A stretch of DNA of 64,000 nt from an uncultured Bacilli bacterium (GTDB lineage: Bacteria; Bacillota_I; Bacilli_A; RF39; UBA660). The notes beneath the pieces were generated by a model that ran no database searches, was not told the DNA's origin, and was given only the letters and a program-made list of their open reading frames with translations. A program made the position numbers and the translations under genes. The stretch covers positions 34,015 through 98,014 of the forward strand of contig CALVIG010000001.1 in assembly GCA_944329425.1 (NCBI GenBank). Direction: 5' to 3'. Of the stretch, positions 6,042 to 64,000 are shown piece after piece; positions within the stretch are counted from its first letter, which is position 1; each line of letters starts with the position of its first letter.

Positions 6042-6132
6042 AAAACATCACCGTTTATATAATTATCAAAAAAATAAGATTATATTCAAAAAAAGATTAC
6101 TAACGTAATCTTTTATCGACATTACTTATACA

Positions 6133-7242: not shown

Positions 7243-7301
7243 TATATACGTTATGTAAAGTGATTTTACAATAAAAAAACAAGTTAAACAAACTTGTCTT
7301 T

Positions 7302-8006: not shown

Positions 8007-8008
8007 GT

Positions 8009-9001
8009 TTAAAACCTCACTTTCATGATGCGGTTAACAACGTACGCATAAATACCGTAAAGTAAAACCATTATACAAAGTAATATGTTACCTTCGGTGG
8101 TATTAAAAAGAGGCAAAAAATAGCTTGTGTTTAAAGCCGTTATAAACAAAACAAACACAAAAGGCATAAATAATAATACCTTACTTATCATTGAAGAACT
8201 AGATGTTAAAGATTTCATTTCTTGTTTTAGTTTTTGCTTATTAAATAACATTTTTTCAATTGACGAAAACACCTTAATTATGTTACCACCAGTTTTATTT
8301 AAAATGCTAAGTGATGAGGTTATGTAACTTACTTCTTCCGACTCTACCCTTTTACTAAACCTATCAAAAACAACGTCAAGCGATAAACCATAACTAATTT
8401 CCAAATGCATTTTTTTAAACTCTTGTTTTATTGGCCCTTTTAGTTCATGCGCTACTATTTCTATGGCTTGCATGGTACTTCTACCTGATCTAAAAGCATT
8501 ATTCATTATTATTATTGCGTTTAATAATTCTTGCTCAACTTGTTTTTTCTTGCGATAATCTGAGAATTTAAAGTATATATCAAGCAAGAAAAATCCTAAT
8601 AAACCAAATAATAGTATATCAAATAAACTAGGTAAATTTCCTTCTATTATCCTTGCAAACGAAATAATAAACACGAATAGTAAGGAAATAATAAACTTGT
8701 TACTAACAAAGTCCATTGCACTAATATCCTTTGTTTCATCATAAGAAATGTATTTATTATATTTTAAACTATACTTTTTCATAACGATTGACTTCTTTAA
8801 ATATGAACTTAGTTTATGAATGATTTTAGAATACTCATTATGTAATAAATCAAAAAGTGAAACAGATTTGTTTTTAATAGAGTCAATACTGTATTTAGCT
8901 ATTCTTTTTTCTATTTTAAGTGCCTTGTTATATATTATTAAATAAAATATTATAAAGGCTAAAATAACCATAATTATGGTTTGAATAATAAATACGTTCA
9001 T
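8009..9001 (-). CDS. Tad/T2SS-F family inner-membrane protein (TadB-like)
   Basis: TM-cytoplasmic domain-TM architecture adjacent to the CpaF/TadA ATPase. Confidence 0.5.
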   Translation of the reverse strand: MNVFIIQTIIMVILAFIIFYLIIYNKALKIEKRIAKYSIDSIKNKSVSLFDLLHNEYSKIIHKLSSYLKKSIVMKKYSLKYNKYISYDETKDISAMDFVSNKFIISLLFVFIISFARIIEGNLPSLFDILLFGLLGFFLLDIYFKFSDYRKKKQVEQELLNAIIIMNNAFRSGRSTMQAIEIVAHELKGPIKQEFKKMHLEISYGLSLDVVFDRFSKRVESEEVSYITSSLSILNKTGGNIIKVFSSIEKMLFNKQKLKQEMKSLTSSSSMISKVLLFMPFVFVLFITALNTSYFLPLFNTTEGNILLCIMVLLYGIYAYVVNRIMKVRF

Positions 9002-45900: not shown

Positions 45901-46219
45901 GTTTTAGAATGAAAAATCACTCTGAATTCAAGCAAACCCCAAATTCATTTTTAAATATTATCAGTATTTAATGTGATATCTTATTCTCATGAGTTTTCTT
46001 TCTCATTTACAATTGTAAGGCCTAGATACGAATAAGATTAGTTTTTTAAACTATTTTCAACTATCTTTAAACATAAGATAGATAATAGATATTAAAAATA
46101 TCGTTTAGAAAGAAACAAACTTTCTTTCTAAATATAATATCTATAGTAAACCTACCTAGGTTAACTTCATTATAACACGTTATTTTGTTTTGTCAACACA
46201 TTTTAATATTATTCTTAAT

Positions 46220-47347
46220 TTAACTATTTTCTAAAAGCCAAACCAAGCCATTATCTTTACTAATAAATATTAATTCTTTTTCCTCATATCCATCTTTATT
46301 TGGATTTATTTGATATACTGAACAATTTATTTTTAACGTGTTTCCATCATAGTAAGGTACATCTTTCACGCTAATGTATTCCGCGCTTTCGTTTTTATAT
46401 TTAAAATTGGCAACTGAAAAAGTTTTACCACCATCATTAGTAACGTATAACCCTGGTCTTGAATTATCTAAATAAATTTTTCCAGTAGATATCGCAAACC
46501 CTAAATTCGTGTCTAAAAAAACAAATTTTGCTTCATTACTAACTTCAATTGTTTTATCCGATATAACATAAAAGTTTTTACCATTATCCTTACTTCTTAA
46601 AACTTCTACTAAAACGTTTTGCCCCAATACATTATCTTGTTTACTAAACCTTAATATCGTATTATTAAATTTCTTTTCATATAAAACTTCTTCATCTTCT
46701 GGTAATATATAATCATTATTTTTATTATAATCATTTGATTCAGTAATATCTTCTTCGTATATAGCTTTATCTATTATTTTTCCATTTTCATCTTTAATAA
46801 AAGTTTCAGTTTTCTTTAACTTTATTTTTCCCTTGCTATCATAATAAGTGTATTTAACACCATCAATAGCCTCAAGATTATCAAAAGGGTCGAAATTCCC
46901 TTCACCAAAATAACCATGTACTTTTACTTTGGTTCCCATTAGTAATGGTCCATAATAATCATAATAGCCAACGTCTACATATTTAAAGGAATTCACTACT
47001 GCCACATATTTTTTATCGTCTAAATTTACCGTATGTTCAGACTGATATTTAAAAACTGATACAAAATTTATAAACGGCATAAAAGTAATTACTAAAATCA
47101 ATATAGAAACAACACACAATGATGAAAATATTATAGCTGATCTTTTATTTTCAGCAACATTATGTATTTGCTGAAATACGCCAACTATAAATCCAATTAT
47201 AGATATTAATATTATAAGAATGATAACCCATATTCTAAATCTTATATTAGTCAAATATAAGATAAAATTAATTAATATATTAATACCTACAAAAATTAAA
47301 TCACATAGAAGTATTTCCGTTTTAAATTTATTAAATATTTTCTTCAT
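46220..47347 (-). CDS. membrane protein with extracytoplasmic BNR/Asp-box repeat domain
   Basis: Three N-terminal TMs, and SKDNGKNF, TNDGGKTFS and SKDNGLVW Asp-box repeats. Confidence 0.45.
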   Translation of the reverse strand: MKKIFNKFKTEILLCDLIFVGINILINFILYLTNIRFRIWVIILIILISIIGFIVGVFQQIHNVAENKRSAIIFSSLCVVSILILVITFMPFINFVSVFKYQSEHTVNLDDKKYVAVVNSFKYVDVGYYDYYGPLLMGTKVKVHGYFGEGNFDPFDNLEAIDGVKYTYYDSKGKIKLKKTETFIKDENGKIIDKAIYEEDITESNDYNKNNDYILPEDEEVLYEKKFNNTILRFSKQDNVLGQNVLVEVLRSKDNGKNFYVISDKTIEVSNEAKFVFLDTNLGFAISTGKIYLDNSRPGLYVTNDGGKTFSVANFKYKNESAEYISVKDVPYYDGNTLKINCSVYQINPNKDGYEEKELIFISKDNGLVWLLENS

Positions 47348-47358
47348 TTTTTCATCAC

Positions 47359-48375
47359 CTACTTTAAGATAATACTTTTCTCATAATTTTCTAAATAATT
47401 TTCTTTAAGTATTAATTTGTGATTCTTTATAACGAATTTTGAAACATTAGGCACTGATATACTCTCATCAGAATTATTTATTTTCGTTCTGTAATAAATT
47501 AATTCATCACCTTTAATTTCAAACGTACCTGATGAAGTTTCAATTATTTTGCTTTCATTTTCACTAATATAACGAATTTCTAAAGTAGCAGTCCATTCAT
47601 TTTCATTATTTTTATTTTCATATTTAGGCAAAAAATAAACAATCAAATTTGAATCTTCACTATATAATGTTTTAAAAGCATTTAATGCTCCTAATTTTTC
47701 ATTATATTCTTTGATTTGTAAAGTATTACAATAATTTCCATTTCTAATATTATAAGAAATTGTATTATATATAAAATTACCTTTAACAGAATAATCAATA
47801 AACGTAATATTAGCATCAGAATCATAATAGTACGTAGTATTATTACAAGAAATATGTTTTAAAGTATTCAAATAATTTTTCATTTCACTCTTTAAAATAT
47901 TTTTTCCTCTTAAGTTCTTGTAAGAATAAACGTTTTCATTGTTCTTCATTAAAAATGAAAATTTAGGAATACCAAGATTAATCAACTTATTGTCATTATG
48001 ATTATACCTAACGTGATTAACATCATATCCAAACGGAATAAGTTTAAATAAAATGATACAAATAATAATAACAATTGGGAGCATAATTAGTGCTATTTTT
48101 TTTATTATTTGTTTTTTTATTTTCTTTTTTTCATTTTTCAAAATTTCTTTAACATCAATATCATTCTTTTTTTCAATTTGAAGAATGTTATAAATGTCCG
48201 TATCTAACTGTTCCGCCAATTTTTCAAGAATAGTGATATCTGGTAAACTTAATCCCCTTTCCCACTTACTAACCGCTTTATCCGTTACAAATAGTTTATC
48301 TCCAAGTTCTTTTTGAGTTAACCCTTTTGATTTTCTAAGTGATGATATAAGCTTGCCTATTTTATTATTGTCCAT
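47359..48375 (-). CDS. membrane-anchored XRE-family HTH transcriptional regulator
   Basis: N-terminal HTH (LRKSKGLTQKELGDKLFVTDKAVSKWERG), a TM at ~residue 95, then an extracytoplasmic domain. Confidence 0.7.
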   Translation of the reverse strand: MDNNKIGKLISSLRKSKGLTQKELGDKLFVTDKAVSKWERGLSLPDITILEKLAEQLDTDIYNILQIEKKNDIDVKEILKNEKKKIKKQIIKKIALIMLPIVIIICIILFKLIPFGYDVNHVRYNHNDNKLINLGIPKFSFLMKNNENVYSYKNLRGKNILKSEMKNYLNTLKHISCNNTTYYYDSDANITFIDYSVKGNFIYNTISYNIRNGNYCNTLQIKEYNEKLGALNAFKTLYSEDSNLIVYFLPKYENKNNENEWTATLEIRYISENESKIIETSSGTFEIKGDELIYYRTKINNSDESISVPNVSKFVIKNHKLILKENYLENYEKSIILK

Positions 48376-48498
48376 AAGATTTCACCTCAATTACATTATA
48401 CTACATAAAAACAAATTCTCACTCTACTGTTGGTTTATTGTTATAAATTATAAAAAATCACTAAAAAACACATAAATAATATGTGTTTTAATAATAGT

Positions 48499-49041
48499 CT
48501 ACAAAAGCAAAATATATTCATAATCGTTTATATACTTATTACCTGGCTTATAATATCTTAGTTCTGTTTTTCGAAATTTAAAACCAAGTTTTTCACAAAC
48601 TCTTTTTGATTTTTCATTTCCTTCATAAAAATGAGCAATCATTTTTTTATATCCAAGTGATTTTAAATATTTTGAAATTTCTTTTAATGCTTCTGGAGCG
48701 TATCCATTTCCCCAATATTTTGGATGAGTGTTATATGATATTTCAATTGACATTTCTTCTTCATTTTCTCTATCCGCTATTATATTAGCTACCGGTTCAT
48801 TTGTATTTTTCAAAAACACGTACCAATCAAAAATTTTATTTTTTTCACATTCCTTATAATACTCTTTTGAATTTTCACCTATAAAATCTATTTCCTTTTC
48901 AAATTTTACAAATTCATTTCTTCCATCAATTCCTGTACATTTGGTTAAATCATATTCATAAATTTTTTTACAAACACTAGATGTTCCTTTGTCTAATATT
49001 AATCTTTTAGTTTCTAGCCTCTTTGTTTCATATTTCCTCAT
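48499..49041 (-). CDS. GNAT family N-acetyltransferase
   Basis: WGNGYAPEALKEI motif. Confidence 0.7.
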   Translation of the reverse strand: MRKYETKRLETKRLILDKGTSSVCKKIYEYDLTKCTGIDGRNEFVKFEKEIDFIGENSKEYYKECEKNKIFDWYVFLKNTNEPVANIIADRENEEEMSIEISYNTHPKYWGNGYAPEALKEISKYLKSLGYKKMIAHFYEGNEKSKRVCEKLGFKFRKTELRYYKPGNKYINDYEYILLL

Positions 49042-49115
49042 TTTTCATCCTCGTACAATTTATTATATGTTATTTATAATTATATACCAATTTTATTATT
49101 TAAAGTATAAGAAAG

Positions 49116-49223
49116 TTAATTTTGTCTATACCTAGATATGTTAAGGATAATCCCCATGGATATGAGGGTGATTATAAGGCTACTACCACCATAACTAAAG
49201 AATGGTAAAGTAACACCTGTAAC
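49116..49223 (-). pseudogene. 3' fragment of split SEDS gene (spoVE/ftsW C-terminus: [35 protein letters not shown])
   Basis: Unannotated in-frame segment encoding the canonical SEDS C-terminal motif. It continues exactly where the 5' fragment at 60890 diverges. Confidence 0.75.
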
Positions 49224-49276
49224 TCTTTTTGTGTTATCAAAAAAATAAGGGTTACACCTATACCGATTATAACTTT

Positions 49277-50893
49277 TTATGCTTGAACCATGTCTTTTGC
49301 TATTTCTGTTAAATTTCTAAATCTTAAATAAACCTTGACATTTTTCTTTTCACCATCTGATATAACTATTCTACTAATTAATTTCTTAATTACACTTTTA
49401 CTTGGATTTTTAAGTGACATAAATTCTTCTACTACCTTTCTACATTTGCAAAATTCTTTTTCATATGTATCACTTGAATAAAGCTTTAGTTTTTCTTCAA
49501 TTTTTTGTTTTTCTTCTTGTAATAACTTAAGTTCTTCTTCATGTTCTTTCGATAGCTTTTTGTATATGTCTACTGATATTACATTATCTAACTTATCATT
49601 ATATAAAGATGAAAGTACTTTATATTTTTTATCAATTTTTTTAGAAACATTTACAAGGTCATTATTTAACTTTTCAACGCCCCTATTAAAATAATAAATA
49701 GCATCTTCTACTAGCTTACTTGAATCATATTTCTTTAAAAATTTACCACCGAGTTCTTTTAAGAAAAGTAATATATCTTCTTCCAAATAATTATAATTGA
49801 TTCTATTAGGTGTACAATTACTATACTTTCCTTTCCGTTGATATAAATTACAATATGTATATCTTGAAACACCCTTTTTCCTTTGCCTTTCTGAAATTCC
49901 CAGATTATGGCCGCAATTACCACATATTAGCAATCCAGAAAGCAAATATTTATCATACTTTTTAACTGAAGATACTCTAGATTTACTATTTAAAATTTTT
50001 TGAACTTCCTGATATTCTTCTTCACTTATTATAGCTTCATGAGTATTTTTTACAATTATTTGATTAGTGCAATCTATTTTTTTTAGTTTTTTAGATGTAT
50101 GACTTGGTTTTTCGTACGTATGTTGAACCATGTTACCTATATACATTTGACTAGTCAAAATATTTTTTACAGTAGAATGTTTCCAAACACCATAACCTTC
50201 ATTTTCCGTCACCAATAATCCTCTATACTCTTTTTTATAGACTATTGGTATTGGAATTTTAGAATCTGTTAATTTTTTGCAGATTCTTGTGATTCCAAGA
50301 CCATCTAGCACCATTTTATAAATCATTCTTACAACTTTAGCTGCCTCTTCATCAATAATTAAATGATGATGATTTGCCGGATCTTTTTTATAACCATAAC
50401 ATGCAAATGAACCAATATAATCTCCTTTTTCTTGTTTGATACGAAAACTAGTTTTAACTTTTTTTGAAACCTCTCTTAAATAAAGGTCATTTACTCCAAG
50501 TCTTATACCAAGCATTGAATCACCAACGTTTGAATCATATGAGTCATTAATTGCAATATATCTAACATCATGTTCCAAAAAATATTCTTCTATATACTGA
50601 CCCGTCTTATACATCTCACGTCCAAGTCTAGATAAATCTTTTGTAATAACACAATTAATAACTCCATTTTCTATGTCTTTTATCATTCGTTCAAAACCTG
50701 GTCTATTAAAATTACCTCCGGAAAATCCGTCATCGACATACTCTCGAACAATATTTAAGCCATTATATTTTGCAAATGAACTATTTATAAGACGTTGACT
50801 TTCTATTGACGAAGATTCATCCTTACCATGTCTGATATCCTCTTTGGATAGTCTTAAATAGTTACCACACTTATAGATTTTATTACCTACCAT
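49277..50893 (-). CDS. large serine recombinase (resolvase catalytic domain + recombinase domain + zinc ribbon + coiled coil)
   Basis: YLRLSKED...SSSIESQR catalytic Ser/Arg region, CGNCGHNL zinc ribbon and a long C-terminal coiled coil, in 538 aa. Confidence 0.85.
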
Positions 50894-50929
50894 TTTTTAG
50901 CTCCTTTCCAATCGGTAGGTTCATTGTAT

Positions 50930-51190
50930 CTACATACAAATATTATCACCTATCTTTGATTTTTGCAAATCATCGTTTTCATTTTTTATTAGTTTTTCAC
51001 TACTCATTTTTTCCTTAAATGATTGCTCTAAAATGACTTTTAATGATTTCCCGGAATCGTCTGGTATAAAAGTAACTTTATAATTTTTTCTTATTTCTTT
51101 ATTCATTATATTATCACCAGTTCTATATATATGATTAAAAATTTCTAATACAACATTATTGCAAACATTAGACATTTTATTTATTTTCAC
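50930..51190 (-). CDS. hypothetical small protein (element-encoded)
   Basis: ORF adjacent to the recombinase. Confidence 0.3.
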   Translation of the reverse strand: MKINKMSNVCNNVVLEIFNHIYRTGDNIMNKEIRKNYKVTFIPDDSGKSLKVILEQSFKEKMSSEKLIKNENDDLQKSKIGDNICM

Positions 51191-51193
51191 CTC

Positions 51194-51550
51194 CTACAAA
51201 TTTTTAATATGTATTTCAATTGAATTTTCTTTTTCTATTAATAAGAATGGTTTATCTTTTAAATGATTTTTAAGAATAAATAATGAAGATTTTTTTAAAT
51301 TACTAAAATGCACCACTAAATACGTTCTTTCATTAGCAACTTTATAATCACAACTTACAATATCTTTAGAGAATAATCTCTCTACTTCTTTTAATATAGG
51401 GTTAAGCATTTTTATATCATGATCTCTAAAATCACTTTTAATATAATCTGATTTAACCTCACTTATTTTTTCAATTGTATAATCGAAGGCACTGAAAATC
51501 CATATAGCACCAATAATGTTTCTTCTTATTTGGGAATTAGCAAAGTACAT
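51194..51550 (-). CDS. hypothetical protein (element-encoded)
   Basis: ORF. Confidence 0.3.
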   Translation of the reverse strand: MYFANSQIRRNIIGAIWIFSAFDYTIEKISEVKSDYIKSDFRDHDIKMLNPILKEVERLFSKDIVSCDYKVANERTYLVVHFSNLKKSSLFILKNHLKDKPFLLIEKENSIEIHIKNL

Positions 51551-51659
51551 TATAAAAGATTAGAAAGCGCTAATGACAAATCAAAATTCATTAGTTTAGA
51601 TAATTTAATAAAACTATCAATCATATTTGATAAAAAAATAGATGATTTCTTAAAATAAT

Positions 51660-51700
51660 AAAAAGTGCATAAGCATTAAAAACTTATGCACTTTATTTTA
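51660..51700 (-). terminator. intrinsic terminator ending the 4-gene cargo operon
   Basis: agtgcataagcattaaaaacttatgcact: a perfect 10-bp stem followed by a T-rich tract on the minus strand. Confidence 0.6.
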
Positions 51701-51713
51701 ATTAAATTTAATA

Positions 51714-52196
51714 TTATCTATTATCAGACAAAACTATATTATTATTTGATTCTATATTGTTTCTAATTATCTTAGAAATATGATTAGGTTTAAAGTTTTC
51801 TTTATCTAAGTCTTCTATTTTTATCCAATGAAATTTATGTTCCTTTTCTACACCTTTATCTATTTCTTTTATTGTAAAAGAATTTTTAGGTAGTTTAGAC
51901 AATGACTTAAGTTTATAATAATAATTAATTTCTTGATTTACTTTACCATCAGTGATATAAATGTTTTCGTTAATACAAAATAAATCTATTATTTCAACAT
52001 CTATTTTTAATTCTTCACGCATTTCTCTTAACATTGCTTGCTTTGTACTTTCTCCAATCTCAACATGTCCACCTGGTAAACAACAACCAATAAATTTTTG
52101 AGTTTCATGGACTAAAAGTCTATCATCTTCTATTAACATTCCACTAACTCTTAATCGAAATTTTCCATTTTTTGTCTTGATTTTTATATCTTCCAT
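51714..52196 (-). CDS. NUDIX hydrolase
   Basis: Nudix box GGHVEIGESTKQAMLREMREELKI. Confidence 0.7.
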   Translation of the reverse strand: MEDIKIKTKNGKFRLRVSGMLIEDDRLLVHETQKFIGCCLPGGHVEIGESTKQAMLREMREELKIDVEIIDLFCINENIYITDGKVNQEINYYYKLKSLSKLPKNSFTIKEIDKGVEKEHKFHWIKIEDLDKENFKPNHISKIIRNNIESNNNIVLSDNR

Positions 52197-52928
52197 TTAA
52201 TATCCTCTTTTCTTCATTTCATTTTCTACAAATTTTATATGTTCTGGCAAATCAACACCAATCGTCTTATAATTAGTATGTAAAAATTTTATTTTATATC
52301 CTTTTTCAAGCATTCTTATCATTTCTATGCCACTTTCTAATTTTTCCAATTCGCTTTTTTTTATGTTTAAAAATTGTTTAAGAACATCATAACGATAACC
52401 ATATAAACCAAGAACTCTATATGAATATCCATACTTAAAATCATGTGGTATAGGTGACCTAGAAAAATACATAGCGAAATTATCCGAGTCTAAAACAACT
52501 TTTACGTTATTTCTATTTTCATGCTCTTCTTTATTCTCTATTTTAGATACCAAACCTACATAACTTATACTATCATTTTCCAAAAGTTCATCTATGATTT
52601 GATTTATGGATTCAGGGTCTATCAATGGCTCGTCTCCTTGTATGTTTAAATATATATCTCCATCCAATTTTTGTGATTCTAAAGCCAATTTCTCTGCTGC
52701 AGTAGTTGCTTTAATATGATCAAGCCTGCATGGTATATTATATTTAACACATACATCATATATTTCATCATCAGGTGTTACTACATATAATTCATCTATT
52801 CTATCAACCTTGCTAGCCTGTTTATATACCCAATAAATCATTGGTTTTTCATTGATTAAAGCTATGGGTTTACCTGGAAATCTTGAACTTCCCATTCTTG
52901 CGGGAATTAATCCAATTATCTTTTTCAT
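52197..52928 (-). CDS. KdsB-like cytidylyltransferase (CMP-3-deoxy-2-ulosonate synthetase family)
   Basis: GLIPARMGSSRFPGKP, NIQGDEPLI, NVKVVLD...AMYFSRSPIP and LGLYGYR all parallel KdsB. Confidence 0.8.
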   Translation of the reverse strand: MKKIIGLIPARMGSSRFPGKPIALINEKPMIYWVYKQASKVDRIDELYVVTPDDEIYDVCVKYNIPCRLDHIKATTAAEKLALESQKLDGDIYLNIQGDEPLIDPESINQIIDELLENDSISYVGLVSKIENKEEHENRNNVKVVLDSDNFAMYFSRSPIPHDFKYGYSYRVLGLYGYRYDVLKQFLNIKKSELEKLESGIEMIRMLEKGYKIKFLHTNYKTIGVDLPEHIKFVENEMKKRGY

Positions 52929-52935
52929 AATACGA

Positions 52936-53958
52936 CTATCTGCTCCTTATTTTTTTTATTAATTTTTTAACTTCTTCATTCTGCTTTTCATTATCAGTAA
53001 TATGCATTATTATGTCATAGTAATAATCTGTGATTAAATCACAATAATCACTTCTTATTTGTTTTTTTAATCTCATAGTTTTTTTAGACTGTGGAAATCC
53101 ACTTAATGGCTTTAAACGAAAGTCTGGATTATCAAATGAAATTTCCATAACTCTAATATTATAATCAGGTGAATTATAATTATCTTTTCTCAAAGATTGC
53201 ATCATGTGATCATATTTTAAATCTAATTTATACTTTTGTATATCATCAGTACTATAAACATCATATATAAACTCTTTTATATTTTTACTAGGTATAGTTA
53301 TATTTTCCGAAGATAAAATATCTATACCGCTTTCTACTTTTGTAATTGATTTTTCTATTTCATCATAGTAATTTCTTGCTGGTGGCCAAAGTAAGCAATA
53401 ATATGGTTTTTTACTTTTAACAAATAATTCATTAAGCTTTTCTTTTATTATGTTAATCTCATTCTCAGTAAAACCATTTTCTATAAACCATGCAAAACCA
53501 TATTTTCTTCTAGAAACATAAGTGTTATATATTCTAACTGGAATTTCTTTCATATCGTGATATAAAGCTAAAGCCAATCTATGAGAGCCATCATGTAAGT
53601 CATAATTCAAATCTGTTTCAAGATGTGAAGAATCATCAAATCCTTTTTCAAATGATTTTATCAATGTCAAAAATCTTTCATCCCAGTTTTCATTTATTCT
53701 TAGTTGTTGCATCTTTCTATAAATATTAAAACCATAATTATTTAATCCATAATATTCATCTATCGCCAAACATTTAACTGCAATGTCAACAGCATTAAAT
53801 TCAGTATTGTCATATTGGGATAAAAATAAATCAGTAGCAGTCAAGTTCAAATCTACAAAATTTTTATCTTTAAATTTTGGAAATTCGGTAGCAGTCCCAT
53901 TTTGATCTATATATTTGTTCAAATACATTCTATAACCTCCCATCCATGTATTTTTCAT
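52936..53958 (-). CDS. hypothetical protein with DGSHR (ParB/Srx-like?) motif
   Basis: 340 aa. LHDGSHRLALAL resembles the DGxxR motif of the ParB/sulfiredoxin fold. It overlaps the upstream gene by 29 nt. Confidence 0.3.
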   Translation of the reverse strand: MKNTWMGGYRMYLNKYIDQNGTATEFPKFKDKNFVDLNLTATDLFLSQYDNTEFNAVDIAVKCLAIDEYYGLNNYGFNIYRKMQQLRINENWDERFLTLIKSFEKGFDDSSHLETDLNYDLHDGSHRLALALYHDMKEIPVRIYNTYVSRRKYGFAWFIENGFTENEINIIKEKLNELFVKSKKPYYCLLWPPARNYYDEIEKSITKVESGIDILSSENITIPSKNIKEFIYDVYSTDDIQKYKLDLKYDHMMQSLRKDNYNSPDYNIRVMEISFDNPDFRLKPLSGFPQSKKTMRLKKQIRSDYCDLITDYYYDIIMHITDNEKQNEEVKKLIKKIRSR

Positions 53959-55717
53959 AATATTCTTTTATGATTTTTTCATTGAATCTACCTTTGTTTT
54001 CTTCGGGTATTGAATTTAATATTTTTTCCATTTGTAAATATGATAAATTTTTATCTAATAAATATTCTGCATACGTTCTATGCATTCTTCTAAATGCAGT
54101 CATACTATATGCAAAATCCTCTTCCCAATTCAAATGCTTTTTTAAACGTAAAATCTCATTTTCCATTATAGAATAAATATTTTCCAATTTATATTTTCTT
54201 TTATTGGTTAAATCATTTATATAATGTGTCATAACCTCAGTTTTTAAGTTACCTGGTGACCTACCTATACCGCTTACTGAGGTATCAATAATAATGTCCT
54301 GTTTAAAAGTATTATTTTCTATTAAAAGTTGAGCAGAAGAGAATGGTTGACTTAAATTATTATGTAGATGAATCCCTATCTTTATATTTTCATTTAATAA
54401 ATGATTCAATAAACTAAGTTTGTTTTTGAAATCTTTATTTAAAAACATACCAAAAGTATCGACAATAGAAAAAACATCCGGATTAATTTCATTTACTTGT
54501 CTTATCAAGTCAACAACACGTTCGTTACTATAACTAGAAAAATTAATAGGATTAACTGAACATATATAACCAAGTTCTTTTACTTTTTTACAATATTCTA
54601 TACCATCGGATATTAAATTGTCATGAAATGAAACTCTAATCATTTTCACCTTACCACTACATTTTTCTAAATTATTAATATTAAATTTATCAACTTGAGT
54701 AAGTAAAGAAAAAATAGAATTACACGAATTATACTTTGATAACAACTTTTCGGCTGATGAAACATTTGGAAACTTTGCCACATCTGAATCATAAACGCAA
54801 TCTTCTAAAAAACCGACCTCTATTATATCGATATTAGCTTTTATTAGTTTATATATAAAATTCTCAATCGTTTTTTTACCAAACATCGATTTATTAAGAT
54901 GACCCCCATCTCTTAAAGAACAATCTAAGATTTTAATATTTTCATAGTTAACTTGACTATGTATCAAATTAAAATAATTGCAAAGAAATTTAGCGACTCC
55001 ATCATCGTTGTTTGAAAATGTACTAAATTTTATATTATCATTTATTTCTTTCGATGAGTTTTCCATTCTAATGCCGATATCTGAATTTTTCAAACTTTCT
55101 AAATCTGACAAATCATCACCAAATACCATAGTTTTGTACTTTTTCTTTTGTTTTTCCAGTATTTTTAAAATTCCATTCCATTTATTAGTTTCTTTTGGCA
55201 AAATTCTTATCAGATGATTTTTATTATCATAGCTAACATCAGCTAAATCTATAATTTTATTTTTAATAATATCATAGTCTTTTTTAGAACCTCTAACCAA
55301 AAACTTATAATTATCATAACTTTCTATTGCTTTAGATATGGTTAAAGTTGTATCTTCAATAATATCAATATCACTATTATTAGTACAAAATGATGAGTAC
55401 AAATTTTCACTTATAATATCATAATTATTCTGTTTTAAGATTCTTATTATTTCTTTTGAAGTTTTCTTTGGAAAACTATTATGGTAAATTACGTTATACT
55501 TTTGGTCACAAATAAAATTTCCATTAAATGCTGATATGTAATCCGCATCAATATAATTAGCATATTCAATTGTCCTTTTGTAACTTCTTGAAGTACTTAT
55601 AATAATTTTATTGTTACACATTTTACAATCAGCTAAAATTCGTTTAGTATAACTTGATATTTTTCCTTTATTATTCAAAAGTGTCCCATCTAAATCTACA
55701 ATTATAAAATAGTTCAT
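53930..55717 (-). CDS. fusion protein: Cof-type HAD phosphatase (N) + HMGL-like pyruvate-utilising aldolase/synthase TIM barrel (C)
   Basis: IIVDLDGTLL and VFGDDLSDLESL HAD motifs, then KILDCSLRDGGHLN...IDIIEVGF, the HMGL-like N-terminal signature. Confidence 0.7.
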   Translation of the reverse strand: MNYFIIVDLDGTLLNNKGKISSYTKRILADCKMCNNKIIISTSRSYKRTIEYANYIDADYISAFNGNFICDQKYNVIYHNSFPKKTSKEIIRILKQNNYDIISENLYSSFCTNNSDIDIIEDTTLTISKAIESYDNYKFLVRGSKKDYDIIKNKIIDLADVSYDNKNHLIRILPKETNKWNGILKILEKQKKKYKTMVFGDDLSDLESLKNSDIGIRMENSSKEINDNIKFSTFSNNDDGVAKFLCNYFNLIHSQVNYENIKILDCSLRDGGHLNKSMFGKKTIENFIYKLIKANIDIIEVGFLEDCVYDSDVAKFPNVSSAEKLLSKYNSCNSIFSLLTQVDKFNINNLEKCSGKVKMIRVSFHDNLISDGIEYCKKVKELGYICSVNPINFSSYSNERVVDLIRQVNEINPDVFSIVDTFGMFLNKDFKNKLSLLNHLLNENIKIGIHLHNNLSQPFSSAQLLIENNTFKQDIIIDTSVSGIGRSPGNLKTEVMTHYINDLTNKRKYKLENIYSIMENEILRLKKHLNWEEDFAYSMTAFRRMHRTYAEYLLDKNLSYLQMEKILNSIPEENKGRFNEKIIKEYYEKYMDGRL

Positions 55718-55745
55718 AATTCACCCCACAAAATATATTTTTATA

Positions 55746-55812
55746 TAAAAAAAGGTGGCAAACACTTAAGTGTTTGCCACCATGAAAATACTGCCACCAT
55801 TTGGGCAAACAC
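55746..55812 (-). promoter_or_regulatory. transcription attenuator (terminator/antiterminator) in leader of cargo operon
   Basis: Terminator ggtggcaaacac-ttaa-gtgtttgccacc+T8 (55754-55781). An upstream gtgtttgccc (55803-55812) can pair with the terminator 5' arm. Confidence 0.55.
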
Positions 55813-55839
55813 AACACCCAAATTGATTTAATTGCTTTT

Positions 55840-55869
55840 AAAATACAGTATTTACCAAATATTGTCAAT
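55840..55869 (-). promoter_or_regulatory. sigma-A-like promoter (TTGACA-N17-TATTTT with TG)
   Basis: ttgacaatatttggtaaatactgtatttt, upstream of the attenuator. Confidence 0.4.
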
Positions 55870-55934
55870 ACTTTTATATAAAAATTATTAAATATTCTTT
55901 AAAAAGTAATTTTTTCATTATTTTTATATCAGTT

Positions 55935-57773
55935 TTATAACAGTTTAGCTATTACTCTTTCTATTTCATCTGTTATATCTTCTTTTAGCACAATATCACT
56001 AAAACCATCATCTAAATAGTATTTTTTAAAATGTTCTTTATCTTTTTCTAACATTGCAACAACTGGTACTTTAAACTTCTTATTCTCCTTTAATTTCTCT
56101 AATGTTGCTAAGGCTGATGTTCCTTTTAACTCATCATCAATTATTATTAAATTATAAAACTCTCCTGCTTTTAATCTATCTATGCAATCTTTACCAGACA
56201 TTGTTGTATTAATATCAATATTATATTTTCCTAAAATATTAGAAATCGTAAATAACTCTTCTTTATTATCATCAACCACCAAAACTCTTTTTCTTCCATA
56301 AACATCTGATGAATATTTTTCAATATCTTTCATTATATCAGTTAGCTCTTCTATTTTACATTTTTGATCTATAACTATTGTAAATGTTGTTCCTTTATCT
56401 TCTTCACTTTTTATGTTGAAACTTCCACCTAATAACTTAATAATTTTTATTGAAACTTTTAAGTCAACGTCTAGTTTATCAAGCTTACTAGTATCACTTT
56501 CATTTAATTCGGATTTATCATCCAATATGTCATTGATTTTTTCTATGTCCATTCCAATACCAGTATCTTCTATGTTTATAATGATTCTTGCAACATCATA
56601 TCTTACTATGGCATCAATATATATCCTTATATATCCTTTTTTTGTATTTTCTATGCAATTCAAAATAACTGACATAAGTACCTGTTTAAACTTAACATTA
56701 TCACCATTAAGACTATTTGGAACATTACTACTTACTTTAAAATCTAATGCAATGTTTTTATCTTTAATCGCATTTTGGATAAGGCCTTTTATCTCATTAA
56801 AGAAAACAGATGTATTATAATAATCTTCGTTTACCTTTATTTTATTAGCATCCATTGATGATATATCTAATATATTATTTAATCTAAATAATATACCATT
56901 TGCATTATCACCTATAATTCTGACCGCATCTTTCTTATCAATATCATTATCTAACTTATCAAAAGCTTTTGTAATTCCGATTATATTTTTAGTTGGTGCT
57001 TTTATTTCTTGAGATGTTTCAAATAAAAATCTAGATTTATCTTCTATTTGATCTTCTAGTAACTCTCTATTCCTTAAAAGTTCATTTACCATTTTAAGAT
57101 CAGGGTTTTCTATCGTAAAATACATAAGTACCGTAACAAAAGCAAAAGCAGAATTAATTACTGTTATACCAGGATTAATTTGCCTTATTACAAAAACAAA
57201 TATCATCATTAAAATTAACATAAAAAGTGGATAATACTTTTTATCTGTTATATGTTTTATATTTGAACAAACACTAAAAATATCAATTATTATAAATAAT
57301 CCACCCATTAAAAGTAAAACGTTAGTAGCCATACCATATGAATAAATGTAATTACCATCGTTAAAATAATAAAGTGGTAATTTAATAACAATTATAGCCA
57401 TTATTACATAAATAATTGTTAGCACACCAATTATACTTTTCCTAGTTTTCTTTAAGCGTTCTTTAAATTTTTCTCTACTTTCAAACGAAATAAAAAACAT
57501 ATATTCAGTAAATAAAAATTCCCATAATAATAAATAAACTAAAAATGCTCTATTAATTATTTCATTTAAAATTCTATAAGTACTAGATACATCTTTATGA
57601 GCTACAAAGAAAAAACACAAAAGTTCTAAAACCAAACCTATCATTGTTATAATAACAAGTCTACTATATAATTTATTTTCTGTATTTTTAAGTTTGCTTT
57701 TCGAAAAATAAACAGTTCCTACAAGTAAACAAAAAAGTAGCATACAACAAATAACTGTTATTCCTATTACCAT
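55935..57773 (-). CDS. hybrid sensor histidine kinase/response regulator with degenerate H-box (His replaced by Gln)
   Basis: Multi-TM N-terminal sensor. The DHp helix FLFETSQEIKAPTKNIIG aligns to FLANMSHELRTPLNAIIG, followed by HATPase G-boxes (DTGIGM, GGSFNIKSEEDKGTTF) and a C-terminal REC domain (VLVVDDN...IIIDDEL). Confidence 0.8.
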   Translation of the reverse strand: MVIGITVICCMLLFCLLVGTVYFSKSKLKNTENKLYSRLVIITMIGLVLELLCFFFVAHKDVSSTYRILNEIINRAFLVYLLLWEFLFTEYMFFISFESREKFKERLKKTRKSIIGVLTIIYVIMAIIVIKLPLYYFNDGNYIYSYGMATNVLLLMGGLFIIIDIFSVCSNIKHITDKKYYPLFMLILMMIFVFVIRQINPGITVINSAFAFVTVLMYFTIENPDLKMVNELLRNRELLEDQIEDKSRFLFETSQEIKAPTKNIIGITKAFDKLDNDIDKKDAVRIIGDNANGILFRLNNILDISSMDANKIKVNEDYYNTSVFFNEIKGLIQNAIKDKNIALDFKVSSNVPNSLNGDNVKFKQVLMSVILNCIENTKKGYIRIYIDAIVRYDVARIIINIEDTGIGMDIEKINDILDDKSELNESDTSKLDKLDVDLKVSIKIIKLLGGSFNIKSEEDKGTTFTIVIDQKCKIEELTDIMKDIEKYSSDVYGRKRVLVVDDNKEELFTISNILGKYNIDINTTMSGKDCIDRLKAGEFYNLIIIDDELKGTSALATLEKLKENKKFKVPVVAMLEKDKEHFKKYYLDDGFSDIVLKEDITDEIERVIAKLL

Positions 57774-57845
57774 CTAATCACTCCTAATAAAATATTTACT
57801 ACTTTTACTACCATACTACTTTTTTATTATAACACTTTATAAAAT

Positions 57846-57875
57846 AAAAAAGATAGAAAATACCTATCTTTTGTA
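57846..57875 (-). terminator. intrinsic terminator after acyl-CoA synthetase gene
   Basis: aagatagaaaatacctatctt plus a T-run on the minus strand. Confidence 0.45.
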
Positions 57876-57883
57876 GTTTTTTG

Positions 57884-59782
57884 TTATTTTTTTATTAGTT
57901 TTTTAGTATTTTGTTTTTGTTCATCCTGTTTTTCCAACGCAAGATAATCAATTTTTCCAATAGGAGTCAAAGGCAAACTATCATTAAATTCTACCTCACT
58001 AGGCTGATAATATTCAGGAAGTTCTTTTTGGCACATTGCAAATATTTCTTCTTCTATCTTATTTGTATCATAAGCATTATCTTTTAATACAACATGTACT
58101 TTTGGTACTTTACCTTGCGAAAACTCTAAGTCTCTTATACCAACTACCTTGCATGCCAAAACCATTGGATGCTTAATTACAATATCTTCTATTAAACTCG
58201 GAAATACCTTAAAACCATCTGCTCTTATTATCATTCTTTTTAGTCTATCGACAATAAACAAGTTACCATCGGCATCCATGTAACCAACATCACCAGAATG
58301 CACCCAAGTCAAACCATCTTCGTGTTTTATTAATATTTTATTAGTTTCTTCTTCATTTTTAAAGTAACCAAGCATAGTATTAGGGCCAGTTATACAAACT
58401 TCACCTTTCTCATCATATCCTAACTCTTCACCGGTTTTTGGATCAAAAATGGATATTACCGTGTTAGGAAATGGTATTCCAACACTACCAAGCTTATTAT
58501 TTTCATTAGATGTACAAGCCGATACCGCAGCATTAACTTCCGTCATTCCATAACCTTTTACAACTTTATAATTACAGTTATGTTCTTTTAAGAACTTATT
58601 AGTATCTTCTTCTAACCCCTCATCCATCTTATCTCCTCCAACTGTTGGAGCAATTATATAAGATAAATCTTCGTTTGCTAGCTTTTTACTATGAATTATA
58701 TTTCCATAATGAGATGGAACACCTACCATATGATTTGGTCTATTTTCTATTAATAATTCATCAAATTTTTTAGGATCAAATTGTGGTATTAATATAACTT
58801 CCATACCACAAGCTAATGGTAAATGTAATCCATTACCGATTCCATACGCTATAAATGGTGGCATTATATTTAACCAATTATGTTCTCTTTTGAAATCATA
58901 TCCTGCATTTTCACACTGAAATGAAGCAGCATTAACACTAAAGTTGGATAAAACAACTCCTTTGGATGGACCTGTTGTACCACCAGTATGAACTATTAAT
59001 AATGGTTTATCTTTTTCATACTTCGGATATGGCTCATAATCCTTTGTTTTACCTGCTTTAAAAAACTTAGGCCATGAAATACATTCACCACTTTTTGCAA
59101 ATTTACTTTCATTTTTTTTCATGTCTTTAAAGTAGTCTAATATTATATCTTTCTTTTTTGGCTCTTTTGTACCTTTATTATTAGCTTCTTCTTTTTTATC
59201 TTCATACATGCTATTTATATCTTTAGAAGCTTTTTTAAGCATTATTCCTAAAGGTAAAGAATCAGTTGGTGATACTGTAACAATTTTTTCTACTGTTGTT
59301 TTTTTCTTAACATCTTTTGCTTTATCAGCTGCAACATCAATTATTATAAGCATTTTTGATTCTGCTTCATTAATATAACTTTCTATTCCATCTTTGCTAG
59401 TTCTAGGGTCGACCATGTTAGCTACTGCACCTATTTTACTCAAAGCATAGTAAACATATATAGTTTCAGGAACAGTCGGCATAGAAACCGTTACTATGTC
59501 ACCTTCTTTTACTCCATAAGCTCTAAAGGCTCTTGCGGTTTGGTCTATGTTGTTAATCATTTCACCATAAGTGATTTTCCTACCAAAATAATTTAAAGCC
59601 ACTCTATTAGGATAATTCTTATTATTATCTACTATGTATTCATATATGGTCTTTTCAGGTAGTTTTTTATTTAGTACTTCTTTGTCGTAATATTTAAGCC
59701 ATGGTTTATCAATCGATGGCTTACCAGTTAATTTTTCCATAATTTCCCCCATTGTATAATTATATTTACTGCATTTATAATA
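57884..59782 (-). CDS. AMP-dependent synthetase/ligase (long-chain acyl-CoA synthetase-like); start moved to MEKLTGKP (the ORF-track 5' extension is probably spurious)
   Basis: AMP-binding motif LIVHTGGTTGPSKGV, and YGMTE and GDVGYMDADGNLFIVDRLK motifs. A GGGGGA SD precedes the internal ATG, and a terminator hairpin lies inside the annotated 5' extension. Confidence 0.8.
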   Translation of the reverse strand, partial: YYKCSKYNYTMGEIMEKLTGKPSIDKPWLKYYDKEVLNKKLPEKTIYEYIVDNNKNYPNRVALNYFGRKITYGEMINNIDQTARAFRAYGVKEGDIVTVSMPTVPETIYVYYALSKIGAVANMVDPRTSKDGIESYINEAESKMLIIIDVAADKAKDVKKKTTVEKIVTVSPTDSLPLGIMLKKASKDINSMYEDKKEEANNKGTKEPKKKDIILDYFKDMKKNESKFAKSGECISWPKFFKAGKTKDYEPYPKYEKDKPLLIVHTGGTTGPSKGVVLSNFSVNAASFQCENAGYDFKREHNWLNIMPPFIAYGIGNGLHLPLACGMEVILIPQFDPKKFDELLIENRPNHMVGVPSHYGNIIHSKKLANEDLSYIIAPTVGGDKMDEGLEEDTNKFLKEHNCNYKVVKGYGMTEVNAAVSACTSNENNKLGSVGIPFPNTVISIFDPKTGEELGYDEKGEVCITGPNTMLGYFKNEEETNKILIKHEDGLTWVHSGDVGYMDADGNLFIVDRLKRMIIRADGFKVFPSLIEDIVIKHPMVLACKVVGIRDLEFSQGKVPKVHVVLKDNAYDTNKIEEEIFAMCQKELPEYYQPSEVEFNDSLPLTPIGKIDYLALEKQDEQKQNTKKLIKK

Positions 59783-59974
59783 TAACATCTTTAATAAATA
59801 ATTGCAATTATATAAAAAAGAAACTAATAAAATAGTTTCCTTAGTTTCTTCTTGAACGGAAGTACACATGTGTAATATTTCTTATTGCTAAGTATAATAT
59901 AACATATTTTTCAAAGATTAGCAATAAAATAACATATAATTTTTATATACATTACTATCTTATAAACAGCTATT

Positions 59975-60679
59975 TTATACACCAAAATGAAAATCAACGC
60001 TTAAATTATAATGATATTTTTTATTTTTATAATATTTCTTTTTTCTAGCAAAGATATAACCGACTCTATGTTTATGATTAACATTGTGAAACGGATGAGC
60101 ATTATGAATTGTAAGCTCATCTCTTTCATGATTATCAATAATTTCCCAGGATGAACCAAATATTTTAGATATGAAAGATTTTCTAAAATACTGATTTTTA
60201 GGATAATTAATATAATCATTTTCATTTACTGCGATATGATACATAATATATACAAATCCATCTTCTTTAACTGATGACATTATTTTTTTTATTTTACTTC
60301 TCAAATCAATGTTTTTATTTCTATCTAAATGAAGTGACCTATATACATAAACAAAATCATATTTTTTATTATTATTGCTTGTATAAAAATTAGTCTCATT
60401 AACTTTTACATATTTACTTAAATTAAAAGTATTTATTTTATCTAATAATCCAATAACTTTATAATTTTCTACTGTTCCACCATATAAAAACTTTTTATTT
60501 TCTTCATAACAATCTAAATAAATATGTTTTCTAGCAAAGGGTAAAACATGAATTCCATCTAATGCATCAATAACTAAAACATTAATATCTCTATTATAAT
60601 ACTTTTTTAAAAAATCTATATAACAATAGCACGTTCTTTGAGCTTCTCCAAAAACGCTTCCATAACCTTTTTTCCCCAT
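59975..60679 (-). CDS. hypothetical protein (possible Rossmann-fold methyltransferase-like)
   Basis: The ORF has only a weak VLVIDALDG motif. Confidence 0.3.
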   Translation of the reverse strand: MGKKGYGSVFGEAQRTCYCYIDFLKKYYNRDINVLVIDALDGIHVLPFARKHIYLDCYEENKKFLYGGTVENYKVIGLLDKINTFNLSKYVKVNETNFYTSNNNKKYDFVYVYRSLHLDRNKNIDLRSKIKKIMSSVKEDGFVYIMYHIAVNENDYINYPKNQYFRKSFISKIFGSSWEIIDNHERDELTIHNAHPFHNVNHKHRVGYIFARKKKYYKNKKYHYNLSVDFHFGV

Positions 60680-60889
60680 ACATTACCTCCATTAAAATAG
60701 ATACAATGAACCCTTATTTTAAATGTTGTAATGTTAATGTAACCTCGAATTTCTTATTTAAAAATAAAGAACTTTTTCTTAATAAAATTATATTTAAACT
60801 CTTTTTGAAAGCTAGGGGTTACAACACATATTATTTTTTCCTTTTATTTTAAGGCATTTTTTAACAGTTGTAAAAAGTTTATAATTAAA

Positions 60890-61897
60890 TGTTACCCCCG
60901 TTACCGGAACTAGTCCGACAACTACTGCTAAATTAAGTAACGTTTGAAATGATAACTGAAAAATTATGCCAAATATTAAGAATTTTGAAAAAGTATCTGG
61001 TGCTTTAATTGATATTTTTACGCTTCTTAATATTATTATTAAAAACAAGGTAGCTACTGTTATTATTCCTATTATCCCTAGTTCTTCAGATATTATTGAA
61101 AATATAAAATCAGTTTGGGGTTCTGGCAAATAAAAATGTTTTTGAATCGAGTTTCCGAATCCAAGGCCAAATAACCCGCCTGGACCAATAGCAAATAAAG
61201 ACTGAATTGATTGAAAACCGGTTCCTAAAGGATCACTCCATGGATTTAAAAAGGATATTATACGGTTAACCCTGTAGGGTGCTATTAAAACCAAAATAAC
61301 GACTCCTACCATTCCAATTAAGCCAATTTTTATAAAAAACGAAAAATTAACACCCGAAATAAATAGCATTGCAACTATGGTCATAACAAGAATAGTACCA
61401 GTACCAAAATCAGGTTGTAACATAATAAGTCCAAAGGCAATCATGGTAATAGCTAAAATCGGAAAAACACCTTTAGTTATTGATTTTATGGTTTTAGGAT
61501 TATTACTAATATATTTACTAGTAAAAATTATCAAAGCTAATTTCATAAACTCACTTGGTTGTACACCTAGTCCCCCAATACCAAACCAGCTTCTAGAACC
61601 ATTTCTTATGCTACCAATTCCAGGTATTATTACTAATATCAAAAGAACAAAACAAGCAAATAAAATAAGATTAGATTTTTTTAAATAATATTTATAGGGT
61701 ATTTTACTAACTATTATCATTAAAACAACACCAATTATAAAAAACGCACTTTGTAATATAACATAATGAAATTTATCATTAAACTTATACTCTGCCCAAA
61801 TACTTGAGGCTGAAAAAATCATGATTATTCCATATATTGATGTTATTAATATGGTTATTAAAAGTGGTAAGTCAAACTTTTTTCTCAATAAAATCAC
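60890..61897 (-). pseudogene. 5' fragment (336 codons) of split SEDS gene spoVE/ftsW; the called ORF reads through into 25 element-encoded codons
   Basis: SEDS motifs QPSEFMKLA, LQPDFGTG, NPWSDPLGTGFQSIQSLFAIGPGGLFGLGFGNS and FYLPEPQTDFIFSII. Conservation stops abruptly after VTGVT, where LPFISYGGSS is expected. Confidence 0.8.
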
Positions 61898-63668: not shown

Positions 63669-64000
63669 CTAATTACCAAGCATTAATCTTACCACTGAAC
63701 CTTCTTCCAACCTGGTTCCAGCCTCTGGTGATTGTTCAACTACGATACTTCCACTACCACTATATTCAACGGTGTAATTAGATAAAACCTTAGATGCTTC
63801 TTTTGGAGTTTTTCCTATCACGTTTTCTACCGTATAATATTTTTTATCATTCCAGTTATATTTTTTTTCGGTATTTACCTTTCTTTTTTCTATTCCTAAA
63901 GCATCTATCGAATCAAGTAATATGGACTTTGCTATTGGGGCAGATACAACTCCGCCATATTGAACCACTCTTTTGGGATTATTTATGGCAACATACACAA
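63669..64000 (-). CDS. penicillin-binding protein (SpoVD/PBP2B-type), C-terminal PASTA region; the gene continues beyond the window
   Basis: PASTA-like segment VENVIGKTPKEASKVLSNYTVEYSGSGSIVVEQSPEAGTRLEEGSVVRL, in dcw synteny upstream of mraY. Confidence 0.6.
   Translation of the reverse strand, partial: VYVAINNPKRVVQYGGVVSAPIAKSILLDSIDALGIEKRKVNTEKKYNWNDKKYYTVENVIGKTPKEASKVLSNYTVEYSGSGSIVVEQSPEAGTRLEEGSVVRLMLGN

Follow-up and report, generated by a model that had tools for sequence, protein, structure and literature searches.

The two copies of a short pentamer motif found in the window, which is the whole stretch of 64,000 nucleotides that was analysed, are very probably the centres of the attL and attR sites of an 11,681-bp element that was put into a spoVE-type SEDS gene by its own large serine recombinase (LSR), as judged from the sequence. 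The integrated body of the element extends from 49218 to 60896 (11,679 bp, to which one copy of GG is added to give 11,681 bp), and all of its genes are on the minus strand. As the preliminary description had noticed, the plus strand reads GTAAC-ACCT-GTAAC at 49210–49223 and GTTAC-CCCC-GTTAC at 60891–60904. Within the 64 kb of the window, GTWACNNNNGTWAC is matched twice, at the two junctions and nowhere else, against 0.11 expected from shuffles, and two matches were reached in one of 100 shuffles; the motif pair is not a chance match. Read on the minus strand and in frame with the split gene, both junctions encode V-T-G-V-T, with a different wobble base in each of the five codons.

The split gene and its host

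The open reading frame at 60812–61897 (minus strand) comprises the first 336 codons of an FtsW/RodA/SpoVE-family protein and continues as unrelated sequence after ...GLVPVTGVT. The 5' part of the spoVE-type gene itself lies at 60897–61897 (minus strand), up to the Gly of VTGVT, and its frame runs on for 27 codons (VT plus 25) into the element, while the 3' part at 49116–49217 (minus strand) consists of the last 30 codons, which follow ...RVTGVT and end in RYRQN-stop. When the two parts are joined in silico at GG, the frame is intact and the resulting 366-aa protein is 99% identical to P0001, an uninterrupted allele that was found with the spliced protein as the query and is represented by four contigs (L001–L004). 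The best NCBIfam model for the intact homologue is spoVE, with 450.8 bits that are barely over the cut-off of 448.8, and ftsW scores 397.8 bits; the neighbouring PBP is matched by spoVD with 754 bits versus a cut-off of 688, scored on the orthologue in L012. No second SEDS paralogue was found in the window.

The order of the genes, spoVD (partial)–mraY–NUDIX–[split gene]–murG–murB–POTRA protein (at the divIB position)–ftsA–ftsZ–spoIIGA–sigE, with a YlbD coat gene further on, matches that of the Bacillus dcw cluster. The presence of spoIIGA, sigE and the YlbD coat protein in the window, and of SSPI and YlbD/YlbE in related loci, would make the host an endospore former by genetic potential. In L099, from the same species, spoVD (located upstream of spoVE at a distance of two genes) is interrupted by a further LSR element (5926–8221), unrelated to the first, whose 553-aa recombinase is 24% identical to that of the window. 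Since spoVD is also split by an LSR element, both cortex-synthesis genes, spoVE and spoVD, are targets in one species. PBP fragments of 207 aa are also found in L002 and L100–L102, and the end of the window at 64000 is 336 nt short of the spoVD site.

On the other side of the split gene, a 2.9-kb block (46205–49112) that is absent from L001–L004 and L099 directly follows the stop codon of spoVE. Three proteins are encoded there: a GNAT acetyltransferase, an HTH_3 protein of 338 aa and one of 375 aa that weakly matches a BNR repeat. The block is present in all four contigs shown with the window-type element. The 111-nt spoVE 3' fragment beside it is only 93.7% identical to L001, compared with 97.6% elsewhere.

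Position of the crossover

The empty alleles in L001–L004, which belong to the same species and are 97.6% identical to the window in the DNA that flanks the element on either side, read CCGGTAACG-GG-TGTTACTTTACCA (GTAACG-GG-TGTTACT). In gene orientation, the empty site is CCG GTA ACG GGT GTT ACT TTA, the N-junction is CCG GTA ACG GGG GTA ACA TTT and the C-junction is AGA GTT ACA GGT GTT ACT TTA. Compared with the N-junction, the empty site is identical up to and including ...ACG-GG and has a mismatch at the next base (T versus G); compared with the C-junction, it is identical from GG-TGTT... onwards and has a mismatch at the preceding base (G versus A). Because the empty alleles mismatch both junctions immediately beside GG, the switch between host and element can lie only in the two G's in the middle of the N4 spacer, and the 2 bp in common at the switch point fit the 2-nt staggered cut of a serine recombinase, which requires exactly that. 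From the alleles, strand exchange is placed at a 2-bp non-palindromic GG common to attP and attB, and the four empty alleles thus give a precise position to the crossover that had been expected within or next to the 15 nt encoding VTGVT.

The attR core (P arm-GG-B' arm in gene orientation; 49210–49223) reads GTTAC-A-GG-T-GTTAC on the minus strand, with its element-side pentamer at 49219–49223 and its host-side pentamer at 49210–49214, and the attL core (B arm-GG-P' arm; 60891–60904) reads GTAAC-G-GG-G-GTAAC on the same strand. The crossover dinucleotide, CC on the plus strand and GG on the minus strand, is located at 49216–49217 in attR, where it makes up codon positions 1 and 2 of the Gly in VTGVT, and at 60897–60898 in attL.

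Alleles of the same species in the P0001 protein cluster are broken by two other elements (L099 and L101), with the tails PVTG/YALLLYSKL... and PVTG/YAGNWEKIV, and the DNA of both elements leaves the host sequence right after the same GG; the C-junction of L099 reads ...AAAAGGGTAAAG-GG-TGTTACTTTACC. More than 20 N-junctions in the wider family end in CCNGTNACN/GG. A scan of species-level genomes gave 562 relatives of the recombinase, and 80 loci were kept. About 50 of these abut .../GG/NGTNACN-YTN-CCN-TTY...SYGG, with recombinases that are 47–96% identical to that of the window (47–98% over the wider family); among the 80 loci kept, those with a recombinase of 39% identity or less gave no such GG/NGTNACN junction. 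The earlier assignment of the motifs to LSR attL/attR cores agrees with the empty alleles, the approximately 50 related loci, the symmetry of attP and the intact LSR. The view that the pentamers and the core together make up the half-sites is retained for the cores, which are real, and is revised for the pentamers, which represent no more than the 5 bp nearest the centre in half-sites that are much longer.

Symmetry of attB and attP

The rebuilt attB (GTAAC-G-GG-T-GTTAC) and attP (GTTAC-A-GG-G-GTAAC) are both inverted repeats about GG. As attL and attR are hybrids of these two inverted repeats, it is only there that the pentamers seem to be direct repeats with unlike wobble bases. The predicted attP joint reads ...CACAAAAAGAGTTACA-GG-GGTAACATTTAATTATAAAC..., and the predicted lineage-specific attB joint reads ...GTTCCGGTAACG-GG-TGTTACTTTACCATTCTTTAGT.... 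The host half of the pentamer pair results from coding, because the codons of VTGVT are palindromic about GG: the peptide is encoded by GTN-ACN-GGN-GTN-ACN, in which GTNAC is self-reverse-complementary if the wobble base is disregarded, and the 14-mer has its midpoint between the two G's with which the glycine codon begins. The VTGVT peptide, including the Gly codon, is unchanged in every homologue inspected. The element-side pentamer is a loose imitation of that of the host: in relatives it degenerates to G-Y-W-A-M, with GTTAC, GTAAC, ATTAC, GTTAA, GCTAA or GCAAA at positions −6 to −2 in elements with recombinases of at least 58% identity, and in distant subfamilies it is lost, the bases there being unrelated.

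In the 19 elements for which both ends are in hand, the rebuilt attP is dyad-symmetric about GG in every subfamily, with arm sequences that differ between subfamilies. Symmetry is found at positions 2–6 in attB, where the Val-Thr codons fix it, and at positions 2–9 in attP (19 elements), and attP and attB have only GG and parts of the pentamers in common. The attP sites of L059 and L055 have 17/30 symmetric positions, and that of the window has 11/30, its symmetry past the pentamers being weak. A 5-bp inward shift of the zinc-ribbon motif between attP and attB is predicted from earlier work (PMC3783163); a by-eye check for this shift was suggestive on one arm only (GATAA versus GGAYTAA) and the candidate was dropped.

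The extended P arm

The inner P half-site (49218–49249, minus strand; −1 to −32 from the crossover) is conserved with a fixed spacing in 25 elements and is symmetric with the P' arm at positions 2–6, 9, 10 and 13. It is followed by an outer tandem P-like unit (49250–49281, minus strand; −33 to −64), which includes the inner repeat at 49250–49264 discussed below and overlaps the stop codon of the recombinase at 49277–49279. The alignment of the P arms of 25 elements contains zero indels from the crossover to about −60, at the recombinase stop codon. A 26-nt block, AGGTGTAACCCTTATTTTTTTGATAA (49234–49259, minus strand; −42 to −17), is identical in the window, L005, L015, L006 and L008, the recombinases of which are 71–98% identical, and the bases flanking it vary.

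On self-comparison of the P arm, a second direct copy of the P half-site is found 31–33 bp further out, where the mean match profile peaks. The matches at this offset amount to 24/30 in L063, 22/30 in L055, 19/30 in L066, 18/30 in both L037 and L059, 17/30 in L022 and 16/30 in L006, with p values from ≤0.0005 up to 0.03 in composition-preserving shuffles for loci other than the window, and to 13/30 in the window, with p = 0.40. Within every subfamily, the outer copy is similar to the inner copy of the same arm, and self-comparison of the P' arm gave no offset peak like that of the P arm.

We suggest, tentatively, that the outer unit may be an accessory recombinase-binding site, namely a third half-site three helical turns from the core that helps in site choice or directionality. 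Such a role is consistent with the tandem self-similarity in several sequence-unrelated subfamilies (24/30, 22/30, 19/30 and 18/30), with the match of the outer copies to their own inner copies in the presence of a P' arm that gives no such signal, and with the invariance of the 26-nt block within the subfamily of the window. However, the value for the window itself is not significant, the outer unit is farther out than the 25-bp half-site seen in the single solved LSR–attP complex (PMC3783163), and common descent or a role in transcription could conserve the block too. RNA structure, including a terminator, was rejected as an explanation of the conserved P-arm block, since folding of the P arm as RNA gave a z value of −0.05 for the window, which is no better than that of shuffles, and only L018 folds well.

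The P' arm

The P' half-site lies at 60867–60896 (minus strand; +1 to +30). Further into the P' arm, at about +41 to +58, is a conserved hairpin, GCCTT-AAAATA-AAAGG (60840–60855, minus strand; +42 to +57 in the window), the stem of which, CCCTT/AAGGG or a covarying variant, is at the same distance from the crossover in all subfamilies, with equivalents at +41 to +58 in L010, L012, L014, L022, L023, L036, L038 and L043–L063. In the window the hairpin is followed by no T-run and is not a canonical terminator. The first gene at this end (59975–60679, minus strand) encodes a 234-aa protein that matches no family and holds the same position in related elements, with homologues of 232–235 aa in L010, L012, L014 and L099; a conserved −35/−10-like pair lies upstream of it.

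The recombinase, the small ORF and the cargo

The recombinase gene (49277–50893, minus strand) is 60 nt from the joint and encodes 538 aa with Resolvase, Recombinase and Zn_ribbon_recom domains (PF00239, E = 4e-19; PF07508, 7e-24; PF13408, 2e-11). Across 14 homologues, R14-L15-S16 and C324/C327/C348/C360 are invariant and the S88-R89-L90-G91-R92 motif is conserved, with S88 nearly invariant; on these residues and domains the enzyme is judged to be an intact, full-length LSR.

Directly upstream of the recombinase is a conserved small ORF of 58 aa (50930–51106, minus strand; ATG at 51106), with the motif K-V-x-F-x-F-x-x-D-x-x-G-K-S-L-K-x-I-L-E upstream of the recombinase in the window, L022, L027 and L054 and a region that aligns with L005, L006 and L008; it is the obvious candidate for a recombination directionality factor. 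Upstream of the small ORF on the minus strand, AAAATGTCTAAT (51167–51178) and CATA (51130–51133, 27 nt before the ATG) are invariant and are kept across six elements with diverged flanks, and they may represent a regulatory box plus the −10 element of a promoter of the mother-cell sigma type. As for a sigma-E/sigma-K promoter upstream of the small ORF, the invariant CATA and AAAATGTCTAAT are all that was found, which is too little to call one. Scans for sigma-70 promoters and for terminators in the surroundings of both ends were not decisive, the number of promoter-like hits being equal or close to that in shuffles, and a generic repeat finder run over the element returned only low-complexity AT-rich pairs.

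The cargo (51714–59869) contains a NUDIX hydrolase, a CMP-sugar-type cytidylyltransferase, a 340-aa protein without a family, a fusion of a HAD phosphatase with an HMGL-like aldolase, a hybrid histidine kinase with a receiver domain and an AMP-dependent ligase, and from this content it looks like a small metabolic and signalling island; it is absent from the related elements examined. PHROGs, Pfam and NCBIfam hold no family for the small ORF or for the 118-aa, 234-aa and 340-aa proteins. A strong terminator-like hairpin with 13 pairs and a T-run (51662–51694, minus strand) follows the cargo NUDIX gene and divides the cargo from a module that is common to related elements and consists of the 118-aa ORF, the small ORF and the recombinase.

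The element family and its distribution

The recombinases of L005, L006 and L008 (98%, 79% and 71% identical to that of the window, respectively) occupy the same position against the same 30 SEDS codons. A MobL relaxase is encoded in L005 and L006, a TraG/VirD4 coupling protein in L005, L006 and L008, and a VirB4-like ATPase in L006; the TraG homologue of L099 is shortened to 470 aa, versus 629 aa elsewhere. By gene content, the close relatives of the window element are conjugative elements. The window element itself encodes no relaxase, coupling protein or type IV secretion genes, by which an ICE would be recognized, and what it has in common with the others is confined to its ends, one of which has the 234-aa gene and the other the small ORF and the recombinase.

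Minimal elements of 2.9–4.5 kb are present at the same site (L044, 8717–11662; L045, 8707–11661; L054, L022, L024 and L027) and, read from their translations, look like a recombinase combined either with a DinJ/RelE-type toxin–antitoxin-like pair or with two likely membrane proteins. The gene is truncated in the window and in most relatives examined, some of which, including several of the minimal elements (GGG TAA), have a stop right after the Gly codon. The elements in L034 (6768–11680) and L040 (1921–6868), each about 3.9 kb long, leave the SEDS gene whole because they bring a replacement 3' end, the last 30 codons being duplicated after the recombinase.

Over 21.6 kb, the identity to the window element is 100% in each of three other samples and 99.8% in one more. 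The exact element is carried by ERZ28614860, ERZ24773375, ERR4303200 and ERR4096442, and an identical element or recombinase is found in at least 23 contigs from other samples. The distinctive tail of the window element is also present on a different strain background (P0253) with a diverged spoVE, and one species has an empty allele and at least three different elements at the spoVE site. In L015, L035, L039, L040, L077 and L088, a Firmicutes-type element with a spoVE flank is filed under Muribaculaceae, Treponema or Sphaerochaetaceae bins, and these odd assignments are probably binning contamination of public MAGs.

Proposed integration and excision

Given the site architecture, the crossover position and their conservation, a course of events can be proposed in which catalysis, the directionality factor and the timing of excision are what we infer. 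A recombinase dimer would bind an imperfect palindrome on the host gene (attB) and another dimer one on the element (attP); the two dimers would bring attP and attB into synapsis, all four strands would be cut with a 2-nt stagger at GG, and the halves would rotate, swap and be rejoined, with the non-palindromic GG setting the orientation. As the GG would be fixed by the invariant Gly codon, the element family would gain a target that is kept in a large number of species. If the same enzyme also brings about excision, presumably together with a small directionality factor, for which the 58-aa ORF is the candidate, spoVE would be rejoined exactly in frame. A directionality factor is needed for excision in all of the systems studied (PMC3783163, PMC5595907).

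We lean, with some hesitation, towards mother-cell-specific, skin-like excision rather than simple inactivation of the gene, because the host has sporulation genes, the target is spoVE-like, its partner spoVD is split in L099 and truncating insertions are common across species. A degenerate 39-nt pattern for the attP joint of an excised circle had 0 matches in the metagenome_contigs and viral_contigs assemblies, a search that is uninformative on rare products, and the rejoined spoVE protein of the lineage of the window, in two start variants, had no exact match in a collection of 15 billion proteins.

It is improbable that the sites are relics of a fixed fossil element that neither integrates nor excises, with spoVE permanently broken in the lineage. 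Such a state would account for the lack of a circular joint and of a rejoined allele of the lineage in the collections searched and for an element without transfer genes of its own, and the identity over 21.6 kb (100% in three samples and 99.8% in a fourth) could reflect clonal spread instead of mobility. However, rare excision products are not expected in assemblies, the recombinase ORF is full length with all of its invariant residues, both att sites are undamaged, the same tail occurs on diverged spoVE backgrounds (P0253 versus the window), and one species combines an empty allele with at least three elements at the site.

The inner repeat

A repeat about 40 bp into the element had also been put forward as a candidate core. 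The repeat is present, although AGTAACACCTGTAAC is located at 49209–49223 and not at 49210–49224, and its match to GGTTACACCTATACC (49250–49264) is 11/15 and not 11/14. An equally good direct match within ±100 nt exists for 19% of all 15-mers of the window and for 6.5% of those with at least five G/C, and the inner repeat alone is at chance level. Only its part at 49250–49259, GGTTACACCT, is kept in related elements, and its left pentamer is not conserved (GTATA is replaced by ATAAA or TCAAA). The inner repeat is the core-proximal end of the outer P unit, in a register that pairs GTGTAAC (−40 to −34) with GAGTTAC (−8 to −2) and does not pair the repeat with the core plus the host flank; what had been taken for a core belongs, in the family, to a tandem copy of the P half-site at an offset of 31–33 bp, not of about 40 bp.

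That the recombinase cuts the inner repeat as a second, alternative crossover core is very unlikely, even though the repeat resembles the core plus flank at 11/15 positions and lies within a strongly conserved block: the match is at chance level, the left pentamer is not conserved, the repeat lacks a dyad partner, none of the junctions at about 50 loci makes use of it, and the family-wide register aligns the repeat with the P half-site at offset 32 and not with the core. A target-site duplication by a transposase or a product of homologous recombination, which the similar 15-nt sequences at both ends might bring to mind, can practically be dismissed, as just 2 bp are common at the switch, all five wobble bases differ (the VTGVT codons had rightly been described as no simple target duplication on this ground), there is no transposase and a serine recombinase is located 60 nt from the joint.

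Comparison with known systems

The elements known to intervene in sporulation genes include skin, SPbeta, vfbin, vrin, gin and yin (PMC4191935, PMC5595907, PMC10747680). As with skin/SpoIVCA in sigK, SPbeta/SprA–SprB in spsM, gin/GirC–GirX in gerE and yin in yabG, a probable gene of the spore programme is split here by an LSR element. The likeness to the skin-type elements extends to the exact restoration of the frame on in silico excision and the position of the recombinase beside one joint (PMC5595907, PMC4191935, PMC10747680), to the range of sizes from minimal non-phage elements to large mobile ones, and to att sites that are inverted repeats about a central dinucleotide. In contrast, the target here is spoVE, the relatives of the window element are conjugative elements and not prophages, and the sequence common to attP and attB is 2 bp, whereas gin and SPbeta have a consensus of 9 to 16 bp. 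No paper on a serine recombinase or an intervening element in connection with spoVE or ftsW came up in a literature search.

The closest characterized enzymes are TndX and TnpX, at only about 35% identity, which also mobilize non-phage elements of Firmicutes (clostridial conjugative or mobilizable elements); TndX of Tn5397 is 34.5% identical to the window recombinase over 80% of its length, and the catalytic domain of TnpX of Tn4451 matches it with E = 8.5e-26. TndX and TnpX exchange strands at a 2-bp core, which is GA, and choose their targets more loosely, whereas the family of the window uses GG and a single gene-specific site.

The A118/LI integrase (PMC3783163) likewise uses a pseudo-palindrome centred on a dinucleotide, attP and attB being bound by the same dimer, and has a matching set of domains, with a match of 4kis to residues 276–377. 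Its model has 25-bp half-sites, whereas the P arm in the family of the window is free of indels to about −60 and has an apparent second tandem half-site. SCCmec, inserted by Ccr at the 3' end of rlmH, is also similar in its variable cargo, its lack of transfer genes, LSR insertion at one conserved gene end and the many elements per site, but the window recombinase scores only 90–96 bits against a cut-off of 900 in the NCBIfam Ccr models, and the gene is truncated, not preserved, in the window and most relatives examined, with the exceptions of L034 and L040. The IS607-family serine transposases (PMC6188088) have direct-repeat motifs for serine recombinase binding inside the element end, as in the P arm here; they differ in their N-terminal DNA-binding domain, belong to another subfamily and have no site-specific target, and the resemblance is taken as a lead only.

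Conclusions

In conclusion, the mechanism is a standard one, the target and the recombinase family are new, and the extended P arm is possibly new. The full picture, in which spoVE and, in the same species, spoVD would be unreported targets of developmentally excised elements in uncultured gut Bacilli, with a whole recombinase family, from 3-kb cassettes to conjugative elements, exploiting the palindromic coding of VTGVT and with an attP that has an accessory tandem half-site, is possible but rather doubtful in all its parts together. This study gives a base-precise attachment map (attB, attP, attL, attR and the crossover) for an uncharacterized recombinase family, and LSRs with defined short sites are sought-after tools for genome engineering. 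The apparent tandem P half-site is a testable departure from the simple-site model of LSRs. The map also reveals a route by which mobile elements gain a cross-species target, namely through a peptide motif that is encoded as a palindrome with an invariant glycine codon at its centre. Should excision be developmental, the few sporulation genes that are controlled by DNA rearrangement would be extended by spoVE, and possibly by spoVD, in abundant uncultured gut bacteria and with conjugative elements among the intervening sequences.
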